Positions 881 to 33,431 are shown, counted from the first letter of the stretch. The stretch is 64,000 nt of DNA from Alphaproteobacteria bacterium (GCA_965205265.1 CBDBGH010000003.1:1-64000), one strand, 5' to 3'. Program-made: numbers and translations. Notes: generated by a model not told the origin, from the letters alone.

Positions 881-1549
881 ATGACCTTCACCTGCATCGC
901 GCGCGATGCGGCCACGGGCGAGCTCGGCATCGCGACGGCGACGCGCTCGCTCGCCGTTGGCGTGCGCGTGCCGCACGTCTCGCGCCTCGGAGCGGTCGCC
1001 ATCATGGCGATTGCCGATTACCGCCTCGGCCGGCTGGCGCAGGACCTGCTGGCCAACGGGTGCCCCGCCCAGGCGGCGATCGACGCTCTCGTCGCGGCCG
1101 ATCCCTGGCCCGAATACCGGCAATTGGGGATTATCGATGCGGAAGGCCGGGTAGCGGCGCGCACCGGCAGGGAGAACCGGGACTTCGCCGGCCACCATAT
1201 GCGCGACGGGCTGGTCGCGCTCGGCAATGTGCTGACCGGCGAGCATGTGCTGGACGCCATAGAGGGAGGCTTTCAGGGCGGCTCGCTGGCGGAACGCCTG
1301 CTCGCCGCGCTGGAGGCGGGCCGCGACGCCGGCGGCCAGCATGGCGGGCAGAACTCCGCCGCCCTCGTCACCTGGGGCGGGCACGACTTCCCGCGCGTCG
1401 ATCTCAGGGTCGATATCCACGACGAGCCGGTGGGCGAGCTCAGGCGCGTGTTCGACGCCTGGACGCCCGCAGGCGACTACTACACGGAGCGGCAACTGGA
1501 CCCCCGCGTGCGCCCCCTGCACGAGACGCTGCCGGGCCGGGGTTACTGA
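881..1549 (+). CDS. DUF1028 family Ntn-hydrolase-like protein
   Basis: MTFTCIARDAATGELGIATATRSLAVG N-terminus, RQLGIID, SAAL and DLRVDIHDEPV motifs; AGGAG ribosome-binding site (RBS). Confidence 0.85.
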   Translation: MTFTCIARDAATGELGIATATRSLAVGVRVPHVSRLGAVAIMAIADYRLGRLAQDLLANGCPAQAAIDALVAADPWPEYRQLGIIDAEGRVAARTGRENRDFAGHHMRDGLVALGNVLTGEHVLDAIEGGFQGGSLAERLLAALEAGRDAGGQHGGQNSAALVTWGGHDFPRVDLRVDIHDEPVGELRRVFDAWTPAGDYYTERQLDPRVRPLHETLPGRGY

Positions 1550-3816
1550 CCCCGGTTGTTTCCTGCCGCGTGGGCGGCGAAAACGGCCATGTTGACGACC
1601 TCGGACACCTTGGCGCCCATCTGGACGATCTGGACCGGTTTGGAAAGCCCGAGCAGCACCGGGCCGATCACCGCCCCGCCGCCCAGCATCTGCAGCATCT
1701 TGGCCGAGATGTTGGCGGCGTGCAGGCTCGGCATGACGAGCACATTGGCGGGCCCGGAAAGACGCGCGAAGGGATAGAGCTGGCGCATCAGTTCCTCGTC
1801 GAGCGCGGCGTCCGCCGACATCTCGCCCTCATATTCGAAATCGACGCTGCGGGCGTCGAGCACGGATACCGCCTCGCGCACATGGGCGGCCTCGCCGAAG
1901 GGCGGGTTGCCGAAATTGGAGAAGGAGAGCAGGGCGACGCGCGGCTCCGCGCCCATATTGCGCGCCATGCCGGCCGCCGCCGTCGCGATGTCGGCAAGCT
2001 GCTCCGGCCCGGGCCGCTCGTTCACCGTGGTATCGGCCACGAAGACGGTCTGGTTGCGGCTCACATAGAGCGTCACGCCGCAGGGCGTCGAATCGGCAAC
2101 CGGCGGCAGCACGTGGCGCACATCCCCGAAACTCACCTGGAAGGACCGGGTGAGGCCCGTCACCATGGCGTCGGCGGCTCCCGCCGCCACCATGCAGGCG
2201 GCAAAGCAATTACGGTCCTGGTGCACCATGCGCTGTACGTCGCGCTGCAGGTAGCCCCTGCGCTGCAGCCGCTCGTAAAGCATGGCGATGTATTGCGCAT
2301 TGTCTTCCGAGAGGGCGGCGTTGTGGATTTCCAGCGGCTCGCCGGAGGCGATGCCGAGCCGCTCCATCTGGGCCTTGACGATTCTCTCCCGCCCGACCAG
2401 CACCGGCGTGCCGAAACCCTGCCCGCGGAAGGCGAGCGCGGCGCGGATGGCGCGCTCTTCCTCGCCCTCCGCGAACACCACGCGGCGCGGCGCGGCCTGC
2501 ACCTCGGCATAGATGCGCTGGAGGCTGCCCGAGGTGGAATCGAGGCGGGCGGCGAGCGCGGCCCGGTAGGCGGGCCAGTCCTCGATCGGCTTCTGCGCGA
2601 CGCCGGTGTCGATGGCGGCGCGCGCCACCGCCTCCGGCACATTGACGATCAGGCGCGGATCGAAGGGCACGGGAATGACGTAGTCGGGGCCGTATTGCAG
2701 CCGCTTGCCGGGATAGGCTGCCGCCGCTTCGTCGGGCACGTCCTCGCGTGCGAGCGCCGCCAGCGCATCGGCGGCGGCGAGCTTCATCGCGTCGTTGACG
2801 GTCGTGGCGCGCACGTCCAGCGCGCCCCGGAAGATGTAGGGGAAGCCCAGCACATTGTTGACCTGGTTCGGGTAGTCCGAGCGCCCGGTGCAGACGATGG
2901 CGTCGCCGCGGACCTCGCGCACTTCTTCCGGCGTGATTTCCGGGTCGGGATTGGCGAGTGCGAAGACGATGGGCTTCTCCGCCATCGACGCGATCATCTC
3001 GCGCGTGAAGGCGCCCTTGACCGAGAGGCCGAAGGCGATGTCGGCGCCCTTCATCGCTTCTTCGAGCGTGCGCATCGGCGTCTCGACCGCATGGGCGGAC
3101 TTCCACTGGTTCATGCCCTCGGCGCGGCCCCGGTAGATGACGCCGCGCGTGTCGCAGAGCACGACATTCTCCGCCGGCAGGCCGAGCGCCTTGAACAGGT
3201 CCACGCAGGCAATGCCGGAGGCGCCCGCGCCGTTCACCACCATACGGCAGTCCTGGATGCGCCGGCCGGTCAGGTGGAGCGCGTTGATGAGGCCGGCGGC
3301 GGAGATGATCGCCGTGCCGTGCTGGTCGTCGTGGAAGACCGGGATGTCGAGCAGTTCGCGCAGGCGCTCCTCGACGATGAAGCATTCCGGGGCCTTGATG
3401 TCTTCCAGGTTGATGCCGCCGAAGCTCTTGCCGAGATAGCGCACACATTCGATGAAGGCGTCCACGTCCTCCGTGTCCACCTCCAGGTCGATGCCGTCCA
3501 CATCGGCGAAGCGCTTGAAGAGGACCGCCTTTCCTTCCATGACCGGCTTGGAGGCGAGCGCGCCGATATTGCCGAGGCCGAGCACGGCGGTGCCGTTAGA
3601 GATCACGGCCACCATGTTGCCCTTGGCGGTGTAGTCGTAGGCGAGGCCCGGGTCCTTCTCGATCTCGAGGCAGGGCGCGGCCACGCCCGGCGAATAAGCG
3701 AGCGAGAGCTGGTACTGGGTGGTGAGCGGCTTGGTCGGCGTCACCTCAACCTTGCCGGGCCGCCCGGCGGCGTGCATCCGCAGCGCCTCGCGCCCGAGCG
3801 TGTCGTTGTCAACCAT
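1543..3816 (-). CDS. maeB: NADP-dependent malic enzyme with PTA-like C-terminal domain
   Basis: LSLAYSPGVA, SNGTAVLGLG, GGINLEDIK, FHDDQHGTA, GRSDYPNQVNN; C-terminal VVFAEGEE domain. Confidence 0.95.
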   Translation of the reverse strand: MVDNDTLGREALRMHAAGRPGKVEVTPTKPLTTQYQLSLAYSPGVAAPCLEIEKDPGLAYDYTAKGNMVAVISNGTAVLGLGNIGALASKPVMEGKAVLFKRFADVDGIDLEVDTEDVDAFIECVRYLGKSFGGINLEDIKAPECFIVEERLRELLDIPVFHDDQHGTAIISAAGLINALHLTGRRIQDCRMVVNGAGASGIACVDLFKALGLPAENVVLCDTRGVIYRGRAEGMNQWKSAHAVETPMRTLEEAMKGADIAFGLSVKGAFTREMIASMAEKPIVFALANPDPEITPEEVREVRGDAIVCTGRSDYPNQVNNVLGFPYIFRGALDVRATTVNDAMKLAAADALAALAREDVPDEAAAAYPGKRLQYGPDYVIPVPFDPRLIVNVPEAVARAAIDTGVAQKPIEDWPAYRAALAARLDSTSGSLQRIYAEVQAAPRRVVFAEGEEERAIRAALAFRGQGFGTPVLVGRERIVKAQMERLGIASGEPLEIHNAALSEDNAQYIAMLYERLQRRGYLQRDVQRMVHQDRNCFAACMVAAGAADAMVTGLTRSFQVSFGDVRHVLPPVADSTPCGVTLYVSRNQTVFVADTTVNERPGPEQLADIATAAAGMARNMGAEPRVALLSFSNFGNPPFGEAAHVREAVSVLDARSVDFEYEGEMSADAALDEELMRQLYPFARLSGPANVLVMPSLHAANISAKMLQMLGGGAVIGPVLLGLSKPVQIVQMGAKVSEVVNMAVFAAHAAGNNRGQ

Positions 3817-3924
3817 CGCGCTTGCCCCCGGCCTTCCGGCTCTTCGTCGCTCGGCGAATCCTAGTCCGGCAGCGGACCTCTTGCCAATGCCGCCCTGGCC
3901 CGGCCCAAGGACCGGGGGCGCCGC

Positions 3925-4719
3925 CTATTCGCTGACCCGGAAGACGGGGTCGCGGCCGAGGGGCGCGCCGCTGAGATAGCGGGTGAGGAACGCCGCGCAG
4001 AATTCGAGCTCCTCCGGCGGCACGGCGGGATGCAGGCCGGGATTGGCGTGGAGGCGCTTGTCGGCCGAACCGAGCGCGTCGAACAGGGCGAGGCACTGCT
4101 CGCGGGTGAAGAGCTCGTCCTCGAGCTGCCAGATGAACAGCACGGGGCAGGAGATGACCCGGGCCGCCGCCTCGATGACCGGCTTGTAGTGGGCCGGCTC
4201 GGAAACGAGGCCCATCAGCCCCAGCACCGCCACCGAGATGCGCGGCTCGGCCGCAACGAAGGGCGCGCCGTAGATCGTGCCCATCGACAGGCCCCAATAG
4301 CCGACGGGGCCTGCGCCGACCTCTTCCAGCCCGGAGACCGCCTCCAGCGCAAGCCGCCAGTCGCGCACCATGTCGCCGGCCGTGCCCTCGCGCTGCCATT
4401 CCGGCCAGAAGGAGGCGCGCCCGCCGGGTCCGGTCTGGCGGCGGCCGTGGACCGGCCCGTCGAGCGAGAGCCCGAAATAGCCTTGCTCGCGGCAGAGGCC
4501 GGCGGCGATGTCCGGGATCGGGCGCTGGTGCCGGTCGCCGGAGGCGCCGTGGCCGTAGCAGACGAGCGGCGCGCCGGGCTTCGAACCGTCGCCGGACCAG
4601 AGCACTCCCGTCACCGGGCGCGCGCTCGAATGGATAGTGAATTCGCGCGCCGAGGCGCCGTCATGCCGCTCCGTTTCGTGCCATTCGAGCCTGTTGCCGG
4701 TCGCAGTCATGGGGTGCAT
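3925..4719 (-). CDS. Alpha/beta hydrolase (dienelactone hydrolase-like)
   Basis: GHGAS, nucleophile elbow GYWGLSMG, Asp (EDEL) and His (NPGLH); start codon uncertain (4719 or 4710). Confidence 0.8.
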   Translation of the reverse strand: MHPMTATGNRLEWHETERHDGASAREFTIHSSARPVTGVLWSGDGSKPGAPLVCYGHGASGDRHQRPIPDIAAGLCREQGYFGLSLDGPVHGRRQTGPGGRASFWPEWQREGTAGDMVRDWRLALEAVSGLEEVGAGPVGYWGLSMGTIYGAPFVAAEPRISVAVLGLMGLVSEPAHYKPVIEAAARVISCPVLFIWQLEDELFTREQCLALFDALGSADKRLHANPGLHPAVPPEELEFCAAFLTRYLSGAPLGRDPVFRVSE

Positions 4720-26412: not shown

Positions 26413-26499
26413 GCCTCTGTGGCGGAATCGGTAGACGCGGCAGACTCAAAATCTGTTGCCCGCAAGGGCGTGGGAGTTCGAGTCTCCCCGGGGGCACCA
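26413..26499 (+). tRNA. tRNA-Leu(CAA)
   Basis: GGCGGAATCGGTAGACGC D-arm, anticodon loop CTCAAAA, variable arm, GTTCGA, CCA; acceptor stem has two G-U pairs. Confidence 0.95.
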
Positions 26500-26638: not shown

Positions 26639-27097
26639 ATGACCAAAAGTAACGTCCTCACACACCTCAAGGCCCAGAACCTCGGCGAGGGGAAATACGC
26701 GGACGGTCAGGGACTGTGGTTGGTAAAGACCAAGAAGGAAGCCGGCAGGTGGGTGCTTCGTCTGGTGGTCAACGGTAGACGGCGGGAAATGGGGCTGGGG
26801 CGATTTCCGGACGTTTCCATCGCCGAAGCTCGGGAGACCGCCGCCGAGGCACGACGCACCCTGCGACACGGGCTTGATCCGGTCGCGGAGCGCCAGAAGT
26901 GCCGGCAGCGTGACGAACGCCGGCTGACGGTCGCGGACGCCGTGGAGGGCTGTTTCCGTGCACGGCAAGCCGAGCTCAAGGGAGACGGGAAAGCCGGTCG
27001 CTGGCTCTCCCCGCTCACGACCCATGTGTTGCCGATGATCGGCACTGAACCCATAGAATCCGTAGACCAGCATGTCCTGAAACGCATTCTCGCCCCG
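26639..27097 (+). pseudogene. P4-type tyrosine integrase, N-terminal part only
   Basis: GKYADGQGLWL...GRRREMGLGRFPDVSIAEARE arm-binding domain; similarity ends at KRILAP where istA sequence begins; no catalytic domain. Confidence 0.9.
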
Positions 27098-27128
27098 CAA
27101 CCGGGGCAGCCAGAGCCACTTCCGGCGC

Positions 27129-28343
27129 ATGATCGCGCCGGAGCGCCCGCGGCCTGTGGCCGAGGCCTATCTGCGCCTCAAGACCCTGCCCGGCGAGCTG
27201 GCCCAGGTGGACTGGGCCCACTTCGGCAAGGTGAGGATCGGGCGCGCGGAGCGCCCGCTGATGGGCTTCGTGATGGTGCTGAGCTACTCGCGCCGCATCT
27301 TCCTGCACTTCTACCTCAATGCCGCGATGGACAACTTCCTGCGCGGCCATGTCGAGGCCTTCGAGGCCTGGCAGGGCGTGCCCCGCGAGCTATGGTACGA
27401 CAACCTGAAGAGCGTCGTGCTGGAGCGCCAGGGCGACGCCATCCGGTTCAACCCCCGGCTCCTCGACTTCGCCGCCCGCTACCGCTTCCTGCCCAAGCCG
27501 GTCGCGGTCGCGCGCGGCAACGAGAAGGGGCGCGTGGAGCGCGCCATACGCTATGTGCGCGACAACTTCTTCGCCGCCCGCGCCTGGCGCGACCTCGACG
27601 ACCTGAACGCCCGGGCCCGCGCCTGGTGCGACGGCGTCGCCGCCGACCGTCGCTGGCCGGACGACCGCTCCCTCACCGTGCGCGAGGCCTTCGAGCGCGA
27701 GCGCGGCTCCCTGATGGCGCTGCCCGACGACCGGCCCCCCGTCGACGAGAGGGTCGAGGTCAGGATCGGCAAGACCCCCTACGCCAGGTTCGACCTCAAT
27801 GACTATAGCGTCCCGCATACCCATACGCGGCGCACCCTCACCGTGGTCGCGACACTGGAGGAGGTACGCATCCTCGACGGCGCCGACACCGTCGCCCGTC
27901 ATCCGCGCAGCTTCGACAAGGCGGCCCGCATCGAGACCCCCGAGCACATCGAGGAGCTGGTCAGGCTCAAACGTCACGCCCACCGCCTGCGCGGGCAGAG
28001 CCGCCTTCTCCAGGCCGCCCCCGACAGCGAGCGCCTGCTTGCCGAGACCGCCAGGCGCGGCGGCAATATCGGCACAACCGTCGCCTCCCTGCTGCGCCTG
28101 CTCGACGACTACGGAGCCGTCGAACTCGAAGCCGCCATCGATGAAGCCCTTGAGCGCGGCGTCCCCCATCCCAATGCGGTGCGCTTCAGCCTGAACCGGC
28201 GGCGCGAACAGCGCAACGAGCCACCACCCATCCCCATCGACCTGCCCGGCGATCCAAGACTGCGCGATATCGCGGTCCGCGATCACGACCTCGGCGGATA
28301 CGACGGGCTCGCAAGCCACCACGAGGAGGACAGCGAAGAATGA
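27129..28343 (+). CDS. istA: IS21 transposase IstA, 5'-truncated (N-terminal HTH missing)
   Basis: PGELAQVDW, LSYSR, YDNLKS, NEKGRVER, FDLNDYSVP. Confidence 0.85.
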   Translation: MIAPERPRPVAEAYLRLKTLPGELAQVDWAHFGKVRIGRAERPLMGFVMVLSYSRRIFLHFYLNAAMDNFLRGHVEAFEAWQGVPRELWYDNLKSVVLERQGDAIRFNPRLLDFAARYRFLPKPVAVARGNEKGRVERAIRYVRDNFFAARAWRDLDDLNARARAWCDGVAADRRWPDDRSLTVREAFERERGSLMALPDDRPPVDERVEVRIGKTPYARFDLNDYSVPHTHTRRTLTVVATLEEVRILDGADTVARHPRSFDKAARIETPEHIEELVRLKRHAHRLRGQSRLLQAAPDSERLLAETARRGGNIGTTVASLLRLLDDYGAVELEAAIDEALERGVPHPNAVRFSLNRRREQRNEPPPIPIDLPGDPRLRDIAVRDHDLGGYDGLASHHEEDSEE

Positions 28344-29125
28344 CCCTCAAGGACCGCGCCACGGCGCTCGGACTGCACGGCCTCCTCGCCCACTGGAGCG
28401 AGGTTGCGGAGCGCGACTGGCTCCCGCCCCTGATCGCATGGGAAGAGGAAGAGAGGCGAAGCCGAAGCCTCAGGCGACGCCTCACCGCCGCCCGCCTCGG
28501 ACAGTTCAAGCCGCTCGCCGACTTCGACTGGGACTGGCCAAGGCGATGCGACCGCATGGCCGTCGAGGACCTCATGACCCTCAACTTCCTCCGCGAGGGC
28601 GCCAATGTCGTCCTCATCGGCCCCAACGGCGTCGGCAAGTCCACAATCGCCGCCAATATCGCACACCGCGCCGTCCTCGAAGGCCACACCGTGCGCTTCG
28701 CAACCGCCGCCAGCCTGCTCGGCGAGCTCGCCGCCATCGACTCCGACACAATGCTCCAGCGCAGGCTGCGCTTCTACGCCCGCCAGCACCTCCTGGTCAT
28801 CGACGAAGTCGGATATCTCTCCTACTCCAACCGTCATGCCGACCTGCTGTTCAATATCGTCTCAAGCCGCAGCCAGCAGCGCTCCACCATCATCACCACA
28901 AACCGCCCCTTCGCCGAGTGGAGCGAGGCCTTCCCCAACGCCGCCTGCCTCGTGGCCCTTGTCGACCGGCTCGTCCACAATGCCGAGATCCTCGCCATCG
29001 ACGGCGACTCATACCGCCGCAAGGAGGCCGAGGAACGCCAGAAGCAGCGCAGCGCCGATCGCCGCCGGCGGCGATCGGCAAAAGGAGCGGGCAAGAGCAC
29101 GGCGCAAGACACGGGGGATGCCTGA
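28340..29125 (+). CDS. istB: IS21 helper ATPase IstB
   Basis: Walker A GPNGVGKS, Walker [25 protein letters not shown]. Confidence 0.93.
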
Positions 29126-30011
29126 GCCAGCCGTGCAGCATCTGCATCCATGGGATCGCCGCCTGCGGGCCGAGGGGCTGCGAAGCTGCCCCCTCGAAGA
29201 CGTGGTCCACGCCCTCGGCTATCGCCGCGATCCCGCCGATGCCGCGCGCTGGAGACGAGCCGGTTCGGTCCTCTCCATCAACCGCTTCATGTTCTACGAC
29301 CATCTGCGCGGAGAGGGAGGCGCCGGGGCCATCCAGCTGGCGGTTCATGCGCTCGGATGCCCAACGACCGAAGCCCTCGACTTCCTCGCCCAACTGCCGC
29401 GCCACTCACGGCTCCCGAACAGTCGCTGTGAGGCGGAGCCCTCGTGCCAGGACCCTCGCTGGCCGGCGCTGCGGCAATACCTCATCGAGCAGCGCGGCCT
29501 CGCCGACGCGCTCGTCGAGCTATGCCGAGGCCTCGGCCTGATCCGTGCCGACCGGCGCGGCAATCCCGTGTTCCTCCGCCGAAACGCCGCCAGCAAGGTG
29601 GTCGGCATAGAGACCCTCCCCGCAGCGCAGGAGCCGGCCGCAGACGGCGGCTTCTGGATGTCATGGGAGCCCGACTGGCCCGGCACCGTCATCCTCACCG
29701 GCAGCGCCCTCGACGCCCTGTCGATCCTCTCCCTCCACCTCGTCCCGGAAAAACGCAGCAAATGCGCCGTCGTCTCCACCGGCGCCATCACGGCCAGAAT
29801 CCCCAAATGGGTCGAGGCCTGGAACCCGCGCCGTATCTTCTGTGCCTGGGACGCTACACGATACGGCGATCACGCCGCCCGCCGCATGCAAGACAACGAC
29901 ACAAGAATCGTCCGAATGCGACCGGCCCTCGAAAACCAGGACTGGAACGACATGCTCATCCGTGACCGCGACGGCGAGCCGCTCGAAACCGATGACCGCC
30001 CAATCAGATGA
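29118..30011 (+). CDS. DUF3991/Toprim primase-like protein with degenerate acidic motifs
   Basis: [50 protein letters not shown]; start overlaps the istB stop. Confidence 0.7.
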
Positions 30012-30105
30012 ACGCAACACCTAACCCATGCGACGCTGCTCGCAAGCCGCACAAACCGGCCGTTCCGCGCCAGCAAATAAACGCCCTTCCTAACCGTCGC
30101 TAACA

Positions 30106-30335
30106 TCCGACTCTGGAGCAAGATTGAGCTGACCGAAGAGGAGACGGAGCTTGCGGACCGCTACCGATTCCATGACGCGATCCTCATTGTCACCGAGCAG
30201 GAACAGCTGTTGCGGCAGACGGTGAACGTCGGGATAACAGCGGGGTTAGTCGTCGGCGTCCTCTTCTACCTCTGGCTCGGCCTTCTCGCTGCCGGTGTCA
30301 TGGCGCTCTTCGCCGGCGCGGGAACGGGCTACCTG
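30106..30335 (+). pseudogene. Internal fragment of a two-TM membrane protein
   Basis: Open frame RLWSKIELTEEETELADRYRFHDAILIV...GLVVGVLFYLWLGLLAAGVMALF, cut by IS21 on the left and IS3 on the right. Confidence 0.55.
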
Positions 30336-31598
30336 TGACCTGCCCCCATGGAATTGGTCCACCCCGAGGTTATGGAATGAGGAGGACCGCTCATGGCAAG
30401 GAAGCGTTACAAGCCTGAGGAGATTGTGAGCCTGCTGCGGCAGGCGGAGGTTCTGCACGGCCAGGGCCTGTCGATGGCGGACGCGATCCGTCAGCTCGGG
30501 ATCAGCGAGGTTACGTTCTATCGATGGCGCAAGGAGTATGCCGGGATGAGCGGCGATCAACTCCGCCGTTTGAAGGAGCTTGAGAAGGAGAACGAGCGGC
30601 TGCGCCGTGCGGTCTCCGATCTGGCGCTGGACAAGCAGATTCTCAAGGAAGCCGCGGGGGGAAACTTCTAAGCCCCTCGCGCCGGCGCCAGTGCATCGAT
30701 CATGTCTGCGACCGGCTCGGGGTCTCGGAACGCCGCGCTTGCCGGGTGCTGGGGCAGCATCGCTCGACCCAGCGCCGCATCCCGCGCGGCCACGACGACG
30801 AGGACCGCCTGGTCGCGGCCATGATCGCGCTGGCTCGCCAGTATGGCCGTTACGGCTACCGGCGGATAGCCGCCCTGCTGCGCGCCGCCGGCTGGCAGGT
30901 CAACGACAAGCGGGTCGAGCGCCTGTGGCGGCGCGAGGGGCTGAAGGTGCCCGCCAAACAACCGAAGCGGGGCCGTCTGTGGCTGAACGACGGCTCCTGC
31001 ATCCGGCTGCGCGCCGATCGGGCGGACCATGTCTGGTCCTACGACTTCGTGCATCACCGGACGTATGACGGCAGGGCCTTCCGCATGCTCAATGTCCTGG
31101 ACGAGTTCACCCGCGAGAGCCTGGCCATCCGTGTCCGGCGCAAGCTCTCCTCGATCGACGTCATCGACGTGCTGACCGACCTGTTCATCCTGCGCGGCAT
31201 CCCGACCTGGATACGCTCCGACAACGGCCCGGAGTTTGTCGCCGAGGCCGTGCGCCGGTGGATTGCTGCGGTCGGGGCCCGCACGGCCTTCATCGAGCCG
31301 GGATCGCCCTGGGAGAACGGCTACATCGAGAGCTTCAACGCCAGGCTCCGCGACGAGATCCTGAACGGAGAGGTCTTCTACACCCTGAAGGAAGCCCAGG
31401 TTCTCATCGAATCCTGGCGGTGCCATTACAACGTGATCCGCCCACATGGCAGTCTGGGATACCGGCCGCCGGCTCCAGAGACGATCATCATGTCAAGCTG
31501 GCCGCCCGGCTCCGCTACGCTCCGCCGGGCGGCCAGCTTGACAGCGAAATCAGCAACGCACTAACGTCGAAACTGGACCAGTCGATGGGGGCAGGTCA
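30336..31598 (+). mobile_element. IS3-family element (IS407-like), copy 1, 1263 bp
   Basis: TGACCTGCCCCCAT terminal IRs; orfA 30393-30671, GGGGGGAAAC slippery site 30656-30665, DDE orfB to 31564; no target-site duplication (TSD). Confidence 0.95.
30393..31564 (+). CDS. IS3 transposase OrfA/OrfAB (programmed -1 frameshift)
   Basis: HTH orfA; orfB with YGYRR, WSYDF, SDNGPEF, PWENGYIESFN. Confidence 0.9.
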
Positions 31599-33431
31599 GC
31601 ATCACCGCCTCGGTTGCCCTTGCGGTCGCGGAGAGACCCGACCTCTCGTTCCTGAACCAGTCAAGATTGCTTGCGCGATCCGGCGCCGAACTCCGGTATC
31701 CGGTGCGGATCGCTGATCCAGCAGGAGGTGAGAGCAAACGGAAGGACCTCATCCCGGATGCCCTGTTCGGTCTTGCCTACCGGAGCGAAGAGGGTACCCG
31801 GTACCGCTGCTTTCTGGTGGAGGCAGACCGGTCAACCGAACCGGCAGTCTCCGGGAACTTCAACCGGAAGTCCTGGGAGCGCAGCTTCCGGCAGTACGAG
31901 GCGTACATCGGCAGCGGCCTCTACCGCGAGCACCTTGCCCTGAGGGCCCCGCTGCTTCTGCTTACCGTCGTCACCGACACCCGGCGGCTGATGCAGCTGC
32001 TGCACCTTGTCGAAGACCTTGACCTCTCCATTCGACCGCAAGTGCTCCTGCAGCCCTGGGGGGCGTTCAGCACCCCTGACCTGCCCCCATCGACTGGTCC
32101 AGTTTCGACGTTAGTGCGTTGCTGATTTCGCTGTCAAGCTGGCCGCCCGGCGGAGCGTAGCGGAGCCGGGCGGCCAGCTTGACATGATGATCGTCTCTGG
32201 AGCCGGCGGCCGGTATCCCAGACTGCCATGTGGGCGGATCACGTTGTAATGGCACCGCCAGGATTCGATGAGAACCTGGGCTTCCTTCAGGGTGTAGAAG
32301 ACCTCTCCGTTCAGGATCTCGTCGCGGAGCCTGGCGTTGAAGCTCTCGATGTAGCCGTTCTCCCAGGGCGATCCCGGCTCGATGAAGGCCGTGCGGGCCC
32401 CGACCGCAGCAATCCACCGGCGCACGGCCTCGGCGACAAACTCCGGGCCGTTGTCGGAGCGTATCCAGGTCGGGATGCCGCGCAGGATGAACAGGTCGGT
32501 CAGCACGTCGATGACGTCGATCGAGGAGAGCTTGCGCCGGACACGGATGGCCAGGCTCTCGCGGGTGAACTCGTCCAGGACATTGAGCATGCGGAAGGCC
32601 CTGCCGTCATACGTCCGGTGATGCACGAAGTCGTAGGACCAGACATGGTCCGCCCGATCGGCGCGCAGCCGGATGCAGGAGCCGTCGTTCAGCCACAGAC
32701 GGCCCCGCTTCGGTTGTTTGGCGGGCACCTTCAGCCCCTCGCGCCGCCACAGGCGCTCGACCCGCTTGTCGTTGACCTGCCAGCCGGCGGCGCGCAGCAG
32801 GGCGGCTATCCGCCGGTAGCCGTAACGGCCATACTGGCGAGCCAGCGCGATCATGGCCGCGACCAGACGGTCCTCGTCGTCGTGGCCGCGCGGGATGCGG
32901 CGCTGGGTCGAGCGATGCTGCCCCAGCACCCGGCAAGCGCGGCGTTCCGAGACCCCGAGCCGGTCGCAGACATGATCGATGCACTGGCGCCGGCGCGAGG
33001 GGCTTAGAAGTTTCCCCCCGCGGCTTCCTTGAGAATCTGCTTGTCCAGCGCCAGATCGGAGACCGCACGGCGCAGCCGCTCGTTCTCCTTCTCAAGCTCC
33101 TTCAAACGGCGGAGTTGATCGCCGCTCATCCCGGCATACTCCTTGCGCCATCGATAGAACGTAACCTCGCTGATCCCGAGCTGACGGATCGCGTCCGCCA
33201 TCGACAGGCCCTGGCCGTGCAGAACCTCCGCCTGCCGCAGCAGGCTCACAATCTCCTCAGGCTTGTAACGCTTCCTTGCCATGAGCGGTCCTCCTCATTC
33301 CATAACCTCGGGGTGGACCAATTCCATGGGGGCAGGTCACCCCCTTCTCTCCGCCCACGCCGAACCCTGCGCTGCTTGGCGCTCCCTGGCTGCGTGCCGG
33401 GTTGCCCGCGTTCAGGATTGATGGGGTGTAG
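31599..33431 (+). pseudogene. Replication-relaxation (Replic_Relax) family gene, 5'-deleted and interrupted by IS3 copy 2
   Basis: LIPDALFGL.Y...FLVEADRSTEP motif; the frame resumes after the IS (PFSPPTPNPALLGAPWLRAG...*) if a 4-bp CCCC duplication is removed. Confidence 0.75.
32077..33339 (-). mobile_element. IS3-family element copy 2, 1263 bp, inverted
   Basis: Same IRs and ORFs (33004-33282, 32111-32929); CCCC TSD; at least one SNP versus copies 1 and 3. Confidence 0.95.

Follow-up and report, generated by a model that had tools for sequence, protein, structure and literature searches.

A predicted pseudo-primase retained within a four-gene lineage of IS21-family insertion sequences

What is a primase-like gene doing behind the transposition genes of an insertion sequence (IS)? 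The question is raised by a 64,000-nt stretch of DNA from an Alphaproteobacteria bacterium (GCA_965205265.1, CBDBGH010000003.1:1-64000), referred to below as the window, in which an IS21-family element carries the transposase gene istA, the helper ATPase gene istB and a further gene, orf3, in overlapping order. A sequence-only reading of the window had interpreted the region 27098-30105 as a three-gene IS21 subtype, whose primase-derived third protein would aid replication or, if catalytically dead, select targets for IstB; it had also allowed that orf3 could be a decaying passenger. Comparison of the element with its copies and relatives indicated that orf3 belongs to a four-gene mobile unit, that its product derives from a primase and lost the catalytic motifs, and that the gene has been retained under selection.

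The membership of orf3 in the element was decided by the other copies. A DNA search, confirmed with exact probes, recovered 16 copies at ~100% identity in the element's own genome. All 16 were alike up to exactly 30105 and unrelated beyond that position, an agreement well outside what chance would give; therefore, orf3 lies inside the mobile unit. The terminus itself (...CGTCGCTAACA) fell 94 bp past the orf3 stop at 30011, so that the right inverted repeat (IRR) follows orf3 and is not found between istB and orf3, and the earlier claim that the gene is enclosed by IS21 ends was upheld. At the left, 14 of the copies extended another 1,080 bp to a common end (TGTCGGTGATTATC...), the window copy and one more being left-truncated. 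What had been taken as the left end of the element at 27098 was therefore a truncation point. Similarly, the three-gene description had to be revised, since the intact element (4,086 bp; full copy at L002:421-4506) contains four genes, in the order left inverted repeat (IRL), orf0, istA (full length at L002:1239-2744), istB, orf3, IRR, the additional gene being a Cys-rich orf0 ahead of istA. The terminal inverted repeats (IRs) were 38 bp long and imperfect (27/38 positions matching), with TGT...ACA termini (IRL TGTCGG..., IRR ...CTAACA). Full-length copies with target duplications, which the sequence-only reading had anticipated, were indeed found; of the 14 copies whose left end was intact, 11 were flanked by perfect direct repeats of 5-7 bp. 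These duplications (n = 11) were GC-rich like the genome and revealed no obvious target motif.

The element has been recently active in this genome, and the window copy is dead-ended. Ten of the 11 standard-length copies were identical and the other differed by a single-nucleotide polymorphism. Two copies contained the same 1,054-bp nested insertion between orf3 and IRR and had differing target duplications, which shows that the nested composite transposed after the insertion had occurred. Among all 16 copies, orf3 was intact in 15 and split by a 1-bp deletion (frameshift) in one. The three copies without target duplications suggested recombination between copies: two had apparently swapped flanks mutually (TCGGT and CCGGG pairings), while the right flank of the third was the same as that of the left-truncated copy. 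Insertions showed no bias relative to the direction of replication as read from GC skew, 7 copies being co-directional and 9 head-on (GC-skew minimum at ~4.34 Mb, cumulative skew lowest at ~4.3-4.5 Mb, turning point at ~1.5 Mb). A scan for subterminal repeats with the 21-nt IR core (at least 15/21) gave the terminal copy alone at each end; weaker repeats were not searched for. Several incidental features were also recorded. The two nested composites were situated at ~4998807-5002866 and 3728819-3732878 of G000:C3, and the 1,054-bp insertion, apparently a small IS at CTA, lay 12 bp past the orf3 stop (after element position 4004). Of the 16 copies, nine clustered within 4.67-5.35 Mb of G000:C3, or ~12% of the chromosome. 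Between IRL and orf0, a perfect 16-bp inverted repeat with a 25-nt spacer was followed by a T-rich stretch (L002:517-573); this could stop read-through transcription entering from outside the element. Rfam returned no match on the full copy, and a promoter scan on the element gave no result.

The association of orf3 with istB extended well beyond this genome. Searches located close homologues of Orf3, 55-74% identical to the window protein, at 72 loci in some two dozen assemblies. At 63 of these loci istB was directly upstream, the rest being truncated copies or contig ends, and the association was complete (58/58) when only full-length genes preceded by 900 nt or more of sequence were counted; the close homologues thus do not belong mainly to MobV or plasmid contexts, the other setting that had been considered for this gene. 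The converse search, starting from IstA (at least 70% identity, with at least 1,800 nt downstream), recovered orf3 at 46 of 49 loci. Gene order (orf0-istA-istB-orf3) was maintained and all four genes were intact in 13 representative lineages; identity to the window proteins was 80-92% for IstB (full-length matches), 74-90% for IstA, 57-86% for Orf0 and 55-74% for Orf3. The overlaps of istA with istB (ATGA, 28340-28343) and of istB with orf3 were as the sequence-only reading had described them, the orf3 ATG at 29118 overlapping the istB stop (TGA, 29123-29125) inside ATGCCTGA. A GTG at 29133 provides an alternative start, corresponding to the start in relatives. In all 13 lineages, orf3 had an ATG or GTG start within -8 to +12 nt of the point where the istB stop codon ends.

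The three exceptions to the converse search were orf0-istA-istB elements without orf3; in two of them the same IRR was located ~65 nt past istB, and in the third no IRR-like match was detected. A tree of IstA and IstB united the orf3-bearing with the orf3-less elements as a single clade (support 100, stem 0.35), separate from a three-gene subgroup described below, and nested the orf3-less elements at two places. Approximately unbiased (AU) tests, which were made on a quick tree without a mixture model and with groups named after inspection of the tree, rejected the joint grouping of orf3-bearing elements (p ~1e-50) and of orf3-less elements (p ~1e-106). On these phylogenetic grounds, the simplest history for orf3 would be one gain and two losses. 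Within the clade that acquired orf3, IstB was 83-90% identical to the window IstB, with a mean column identity of 88%; the combination of a long stem (0.35) with a conserved IstB could reflect co-adaptation of IstA and IstB to a new partner.

The structural model of Orf3 identified it as a miniature DnaG-type primase, consisting of a predicted zinc-binding domain (ZBD)-like part, a DUF3991 region, a Toprim domain and a short conserved tail. Pfam detected DUF3991 at residues 120-165 (27.9 bits, cut-off 24.5), and there was no NCBIfam match. The AlphaFold2 model, based on 24 homologues (predicted local distance difference test score, pLDDT, 83.5; predicted template modelling score, pTM, 0.81), comprised an alpha/beta domain (11-91), a disordered linker (~96-114), a second domain (115-182) and a Rossmann-like domain (190-284). 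Foldseek ranked a DnaG fragment from Aquifex first (2au3, zinc-binding plus RNA-polymerase domains; E 4e-7), followed by DnaG cores of E. coli, M. tuberculosis and S. aureus, T7 gp4 primase and Twinkle; the core fold matched 2au3, 1eqn, 1dd9, 3b39, 5w33 and 1nui at E 4e-7 to 2e-3, and the isolated Bacillus ZBD (1d0q) weakly (E 0.05). The primase derivation proposed for Orf3 was therefore borne out by the DUF3991 match and by the resemblance of the model to DnaG and T7 primase structures. A sequence profile of the Orf3 family found nothing among PDB sequences at E of 1 or below. All 24 family members examined with Pfam contained DUF3991, with weak Toprim_3 in 22 and weak Toprim_2 in 19 (best E in the clade 6e-6 and 4e-6 respectively); the window protein scored 13.8 bits for Toprim_3, under the cut-off of 27.2. 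Compared with DnaG (2au3, 1dd9/1eqn) and T7 gp4, Orf3 shared domain order and fold (Foldseek probability 1.00, E 4e-7 to 1e-3); however, identity was 10-16%, and Orf3 lacked zinc ligands, the Toprim Glu, DxD and the C-terminal helicase-binding domain. A conserved Cys/His ligand set (Cys4 or CHC2) was absent from the alignments of the IS21 clade and also from those of its relatives.

The Glu and DxD motifs are catalytic residues in Toprim enzymes. In the window protein, Gly195 stood in place of the Toprim Glu and D245-A-T247 in place of DxD, exactly as first described, and the alignments and motif table showed that both departures are conserved across the IS21-linked clade and do not occur in its relatives. 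The Glu position was occupied by G, K, N, D or A in the clade (non-Glu in all 12 sequences, of 13, that matched the pattern), with Asp in two lineages; D[AT]T replaced DxD in 12 of 13 sequences, and the RGMAPGSRK-type (GSRK) motif was found in none of the 13. Among 32 other relatives, either transposon-borne or unplaced, Glu was present in every one, DxD in 30 (two were unmatched by the pattern) and the GSRK-type motif in 26. Other residues of the old active site, E165, D199, D245 and D275-W-N277, were still conserved in the IS21 clade, and the family alignment contained 33 invariant columns. The C-terminal tail (R[DE]RxGEP) was found in the four-gene IS21 clade, plus a shorter form in one of two groups of convergent IS21 elements, and was absent from the primases of IS481-like elements in the motif table. 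No catalytically intact homologue that might act in trans was detected in the element's own genome.

The origin of orf3 was traced through its relatives, of which a profile search of 1.8 billion representatives yielded 2,799. The nearest outside the IS21 clade (35-45% identity) retained intact catalytic motifs and were likewise multicopy. Seventy-six loci were retrieved with these nearest relatives and sorted by element type. Twelve were four-gene IS21 elements. Nine belonged to a distant IS21 lineage (IstA/IstB ~30-35% identical), in which a primase-like gene lay past istB in convergent orientation, within a block bounded by TTGACCCAC-type repeats; in one example (metagenome-assembled genome (MAG) locus L084:4881-8323) the primase-like gene was catalytically intact and on the opposite strand. 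Another 38 encoded a Cys-rich open reading frame (ORF), an IS481-like rve transposase, an ExeA-like AAA_22 ATPase and a primase-like gene, and 15 were of the same type with an AAA_25 (RepA-like) gene ahead of the primase-like gene; the remaining two were short, unclassifiable contigs. The IS481-like elements are bona fide transposons: they were 4.2-5.2 kb long and multicopy (MAG loci L096:769-5943 and L110:1882-6097, for example), with TGTTG...CAACA or TGAGCGCACAC IRs and target duplications of 4-6 bp in most copies. They resemble the four-gene IS21 element in combining a Cys-rich gene, a DDE transposase, an AAA+ ATPase and a 3' primase-like gene with multiple copies, IRs and duplications. However, the transposase family is another one (best NCBIfam match IS481, below cut-off), as is the ATPase, and their primases keep Glu, DxD and GSRK and have no R[DE]RxGEP tail. 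No published description of primase-carrying IS481-like transposons was found.

Phylogenetic analysis of the primases showed that the transposon-borne proteins form a group (support 92), within which the four-gene IS21 clade was monophyletic (100), on a stem of 0.72, and nested among catalytically intact forms. By this tree, orf3 was captured once from the primase pool of other transposons with DDE transposases and AAA+ ATPases, and the Toprim Glu, the second Asp of DxD and the GSRK-type motif were lost on the stem of the IS21 clade. More distantly, the Orf3 module also occurred at the C-terminus of ~600-aa and far larger proteins. Matches in a plasmid collection were mostly MobV relaxases and 'DUF3991 and TOPRIM' proteins (24-29% identity among 25 matches listed); here the entire 280-residue module aligned, at about residues 230-650 of the ~600-aa fusions, but these modules were plasmid-borne, often fused to relaxases and not linked to IS21.

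Selection on orf3 was estimated from ratios of nonsynonymous to synonymous substitution (dN/dS). Across 78 pairs, median NG86 values were 0.43 for orf0, 0.34 for istA, 0.26 for istB and 0.58 for orf3, every orf3 pair being below 1. When six phylogenetically independent pairs were pooled, the values were 0.37, 0.32, 0.26 and 0.53 respectively, with a bootstrap 95% confidence interval for orf3 of 0.44-0.62. By region, the three folded parts of orf3 gave 0.47-0.53, the linker 1.28 and the 12-residue tail 0.23, and in 13 lineages, with a median dN of 0.27 between them, the ORF was intact. The ratio of 0.53, with a start locked near the istB stop, therefore pointed to orf3 as a retained pseudo-primase rather than a decaying passenger, and these estimates indicate that it has been kept under purifying selection since its catalytic motifs were lost.

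The fourth gene, orf0, encodes a 144-aa basic protein (L002:803-1237) and ends one base ahead of the istA ATG (L002:1239). It had no match in Pfam or NCBIfam. The orf0 family (56 clusters) has eight invariant Cys residues, at positions 10, 13, 20, 23, 30, 34, 123 and 126, and shares a basic helix, AGQRYQ..GRH.HAERQRRYR; these patterns suggest a small zinc-binding, probably nucleic-acid-binding, protein. BLASTP revealed no significant similarity between orf0 and the Cys-rich ORFs of the IS481-like elements. At 75 of 80 loci with distant orf0 homologues, istA was the next gene, the other five being contig ends or unexamined, and a primase-like gene was present at none of the 80, nor at any locus in a second set of 11 suitable ones. 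These loci define a three-gene subgroup (orf0-istA-istB), present in many Proteobacteria and other phyla, that matches the four-gene element in gene order and in its orf0 family (Cys pattern and basic helix) but differs from it in sequence (IstA 52-65%, IstB 52-69% identical) and in having no primase-like gene. In a three-gene relative on a Burkholderia thailandensis plasmid (NZ_CP013412), istA and istB were annotated and the orf0 homologue was not; on the same plasmid, an annotated 71-codon hypothetical ORF overlaps the istB stop at the position of orf3 (L239:4757-4972).

The favoured explanation combines the anatomy of the element, its history and an adaptor function for Orf3, and taken as a whole it was given about an even chance. 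Its functional part is possible rather than probable: by comparison with relatives, Orf3 may be a non-catalytic adaptor that couples the transposition intermediate to the host replisome. In PMC11208146, copy-out/paste-in is given as the proposed pathway for IS21; IstB is described there as a DnaC-like AAA+ protein whose decamers bend target DNA and which brings in IstA as a tetramer. Such a pathway would require a round of DNA synthesis on the transposition intermediate. Relatives with catalytic residues, some of them accompanied by a RepA-like helicase gene, would supply the transposon's own priming; in the Orf3 of the IS21 clade priming would have been lost, leaving a structural adaptor made together with IstB. 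This adaptor may bind the branched or single-stranded intermediate, or IstB/IstA, by means of its retained fold and conserved acidic tail, and pass the intermediate to the host replication machinery, which would increase the yield of new copies. The occurrence of primase genes, some with helicase-like genes, beside an AAA+ gene in three unrelated backbones suggests that priming is useful to such elements; and while the catalytic motifs are gone, the fold, the tail and the coupling to istB have been selected, which fits a non-catalytic adaptor role. A wider proposal, held with similar reserve, is that two IS21 lineages and the IS481-like elements, through their DnaG-like primase and in some cases a RepA-like helicase, encode a mini-primosome that would replicate the copy-out intermediate without host restart factors; in the four-gene IS21, a pseudo-enzyme made together with the DnaC-like IstB would couple the IstB-marked intermediate to the host replisome.

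Several observations weigh against the adaptor explanation. Insertion orientation was unbiased with respect to replication (7 vs 9). The gene is the fastest-evolving of the four (0.53 vs 0.26-0.37 in the other three). It has been lost at least twice, through clean deletions sparing orf0-istA-istB-IRR, and is therefore not indispensable for persistence of the element. E165, D199, D245 and D275 are still conserved, so that residual chemistry is possible. The assembly labels of the 72 loci (mostly Alphaproteobacteria, but also Defluviicoccus, Dehalococcoidia/Chloroflexota, Gemmatimonadota and Pseudomonadales) are unreliable as taxon assignments for short MAG contigs with multicopy IS. Copy number speaks for the explanation, since each orf3-less element was single-copy in its genome, whereas orf3-bearing elements reached 16 copies here and were also highly multiplied in several other assemblies; but only three genomes with orf3-less elements enter this contrast, and differences in host lineage and type of assembly confound it. 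Sequencing runs add a weak point in its favour: related sequence was present in sponge and coral-reef metagenome-labelled runs, and a 1,103-nt contig in a sponge metatranscriptome library, from a ~91%-identical relative, spanned the istB 3' end and the entire orf3; it offers a weak hint of orf3 transcription, as it may be DNA carry-over and contigs, the form in which the sequencing runs were available, give no expression level, strand or transcript ends. Another run, guessed to be RNA, contained a 33-nt P-loop match alone.

Two alternatives share the view that Orf3 is no longer an enzyme. The protein could be a target selector or regulator of IstB, steering assembly to forks, gaps or junctions of single- and double-stranded DNA, or tuning the ATPase, a role for which TnsE or TniQ of Tn7-like elements would be the analogues. 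Start-stop coupling with istB in 13/13 lineages, the placement of a primase-like gene directly after an AAA+ ATPase or helicase-like gene in other transposon types too, a C-terminal tail confined to IS21-linked forms, and the long branch (0.35) leading to IstA/IstB of the orf3-bearing clade, compatible with co-adaptation, all count in favour of this role. Yet the copies displayed neither an orientation bias relative to replication nor anything but ordinary, GC-rich duplications of 5-7 bp, with no obvious motif among 11 sites, and the catalytically intact relatives in other transposons suggest that the ancestral role was enzymatic; this alternative was judged rather unlikely. Less probable still is a neutral or decaying passenger: a primase gene acquired from another transposon that has become functionless and simply hitch-hikes between istB and IRR. 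The loss of catalytic motifs, the highest dN/dS of the four genes, two independent clean losses and the frameshift in 1 of 16 local copies speak for it, but neutral evolution was confined to the disordered linker (1.28), and the gene as a whole, at 0.53 with an upper limit of 0.62 and all 78 pairs below 1, was constrained. An intact ORF in 13 lineages at a median dN of 0.27, the 33 invariant alignment columns, the conserved coupled start and C-terminal tail, and retention in 46 of 49 close IstA relatives with enough flank also argue against it. Of the options offered by the sequence-only reading, decay is accordingly disfavoured.

The other alternatives concern what Orf3 acts upon and by what chemistry. 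If E165, D199, D245 and D275 provided a divergent Toprim chemistry (non-canonical priming or nicking) on the intermediate, Orf3 would still be an enzyme, and these residues show little or no variation in the IS21 clade, with Asp at the former Glu position in two lineages. This was thought improbable: G, K, N, D and A all occur where the Glu used to be, a freedom unlike that of a catalytic residue; the entire clade has lost the GSRK-type motif and the second Asp of DxD; and the long stem (0.72) fits a changed constraint. Least probable of all is a role outside transposition, for example in establishment after conjugation or in interference with host or phage replication. The very distant homologues do include C-terminal domains of MobV relaxases and stand-alone plasmid proteins (24-29% identity, 25 listed). 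However, every close or intermediate relative found is carried by a transposon, next to genes for a DDE transposase and an AAA+ ATPase, and at least three unrelated backbones are represented, which argues for a role linked to that machinery, and neither an origin of transfer (oriT) nor a relaxase was detected in the element.

The window copy itself (27100-30105, plus strand; Table 1) is a 5'-truncated element corresponding to element positions 1081-4086. It lacks the first 1,080 bp, that is, IRL, orf0 and the initial 262 nt of istA, so that 27100 is a truncation point and not a left end, and the ATG at 27129 encodes an internal Met of IstA. The flank to the left of 27099/27100 diverged from that of all other copies. 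Truncated IstA still matched NCBIfam transpos_IS21 (182.5 bits, cut-off 160) and Pfam rve and Mu-transpos_C_2, and IstB matched Pfam IstB_IS21 (E 6.5e-57) and NCBIfam IS21_help_AAA (212 bits, cut-off 200). At the truncation point, the integrase fragment comprises the N-terminal 150-odd residues and is cut at the start of the IS sequence; the nearby tRNA-Leu(CAA) gene is the probable attachment site of a genomic island harbouring the truncated IS. The right end adjoins a cut host ORF, as had been claimed, since an uninterrupted paralogue in the same genome has ~18 extra codons upstream of the junction. The paralogous island segment with the uncut ORF (G000:C3 ~5393300-5393900), in which an AlpA-like small regulator gene precedes it, indicates that the island in the window lost the stretch from the integrase N-terminus to the ORF in an IS-associated deletion. 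Further along (30393-33095), a partial Replic_Relax-type gene (31667-32125) is enclosed by two near-identical IS3-family elements (HTH_Tnp_1 ORF plus rve/rve_3 ORF) in inverted orientation; IS elements have extensively rearranged the island here.

Table 1. Features of the truncated element and its flanks, in window coordinates
Feature	Position	Strand	Basis or remark
tRNA-Leu(CAA)	26413..26499	+	ARAGORN
Tyrosine integrase, N-terminal fragment (Arm-DNA-bind_3, Phage_int_M)	26639..27099	+	Pfam
istA' (DDE transposase, minus first 262 nt = 87 codons)	27100..28343	+	NCBIfam, Pfam
istB (AAA+ helper ATPase)	28340..29125	+	NCBIfam, Pfam
orf3 (predicted 297-aa DnaG-like pseudo-primase)	29118..30011	+	
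Orf3 residues 11-91, ZBD-like alpha/beta domain (predicted)	29148..29390	+	AlphaFold2, Foldseek, alignment
Orf3 residues 115-182, DUF3991 region, putative N-terminal subdomain of primase core	29460..29663	+	Pfam, alignment
Orf3 residues 190-284, degenerate Toprim (predicted)	29685..29969	+	weak Pfam matches, alignments, Foldseek
Orf3 C-terminal tail, R[DE]RxGEP..DDR	29970..30008	+	alignment, motif table
IRR	30068..30105	+	terminates ...CGCTAACA-3'; 27/38 positions match IRL of full copies
5'-cut host or island ORF adjoining IS right end	30106..30338	+	comparison with intact paralogue

In the IS21 family, target duplications are usually 4-8 bp and IstA binds subterminal sites, L1-L3 and R1-R2. 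The element described here is like IS21/IS5376 in its IstA and IstB, both above NCBIfam cut-offs, in the ATGA overlap, in its imperfect IRs with TGT...ACA termini and in its duplications of 5-7 bp; it differs in carrying two extra conserved genes inside its ends, and in its length (4.1 kb). Instead of several subterminal repeats, the scan at 15/21 or better picked up a single copy of the IR core at each end. PMC11208146 gives 5-bp target duplications for many IS21 members and mentions R1/R2 sites. A literature search brought up no account of IS21 or other insertion sequences with a primase-like gene, although it did not cover ISfinder or TnCentral, which may name such an IS; the accessible part of a study of the Paracoccus mobilome refers only generically to 'additional ORFs' in IS21 and IS66 elements (PMC3281130).

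These results show that the definition of IS21 as istA plus istB is incomplete, there being a widespread subgroup with a conserved, predicted zinc-finger gene, of which one lineage has a fourth gene. The four-gene IS21, whose relatives are abundant in MAGs, illustrates how a selfish element can keep a pseudo-enzyme. The means by which DNA synthesis is recruited to copy-out/paste-in intermediates are poorly understood, and the elements compared here form a natural series, from intact primase, through primase with a helicase-like gene, to a conserved dead primase and clean natural deletions. As this series is built on two-component machines of transposase and AAA+ ATPase, it would make the idea of replication factors as parts of the transposition machinery testable, and the element points to an unexplored link between IS21-type transposition and DNA replication.

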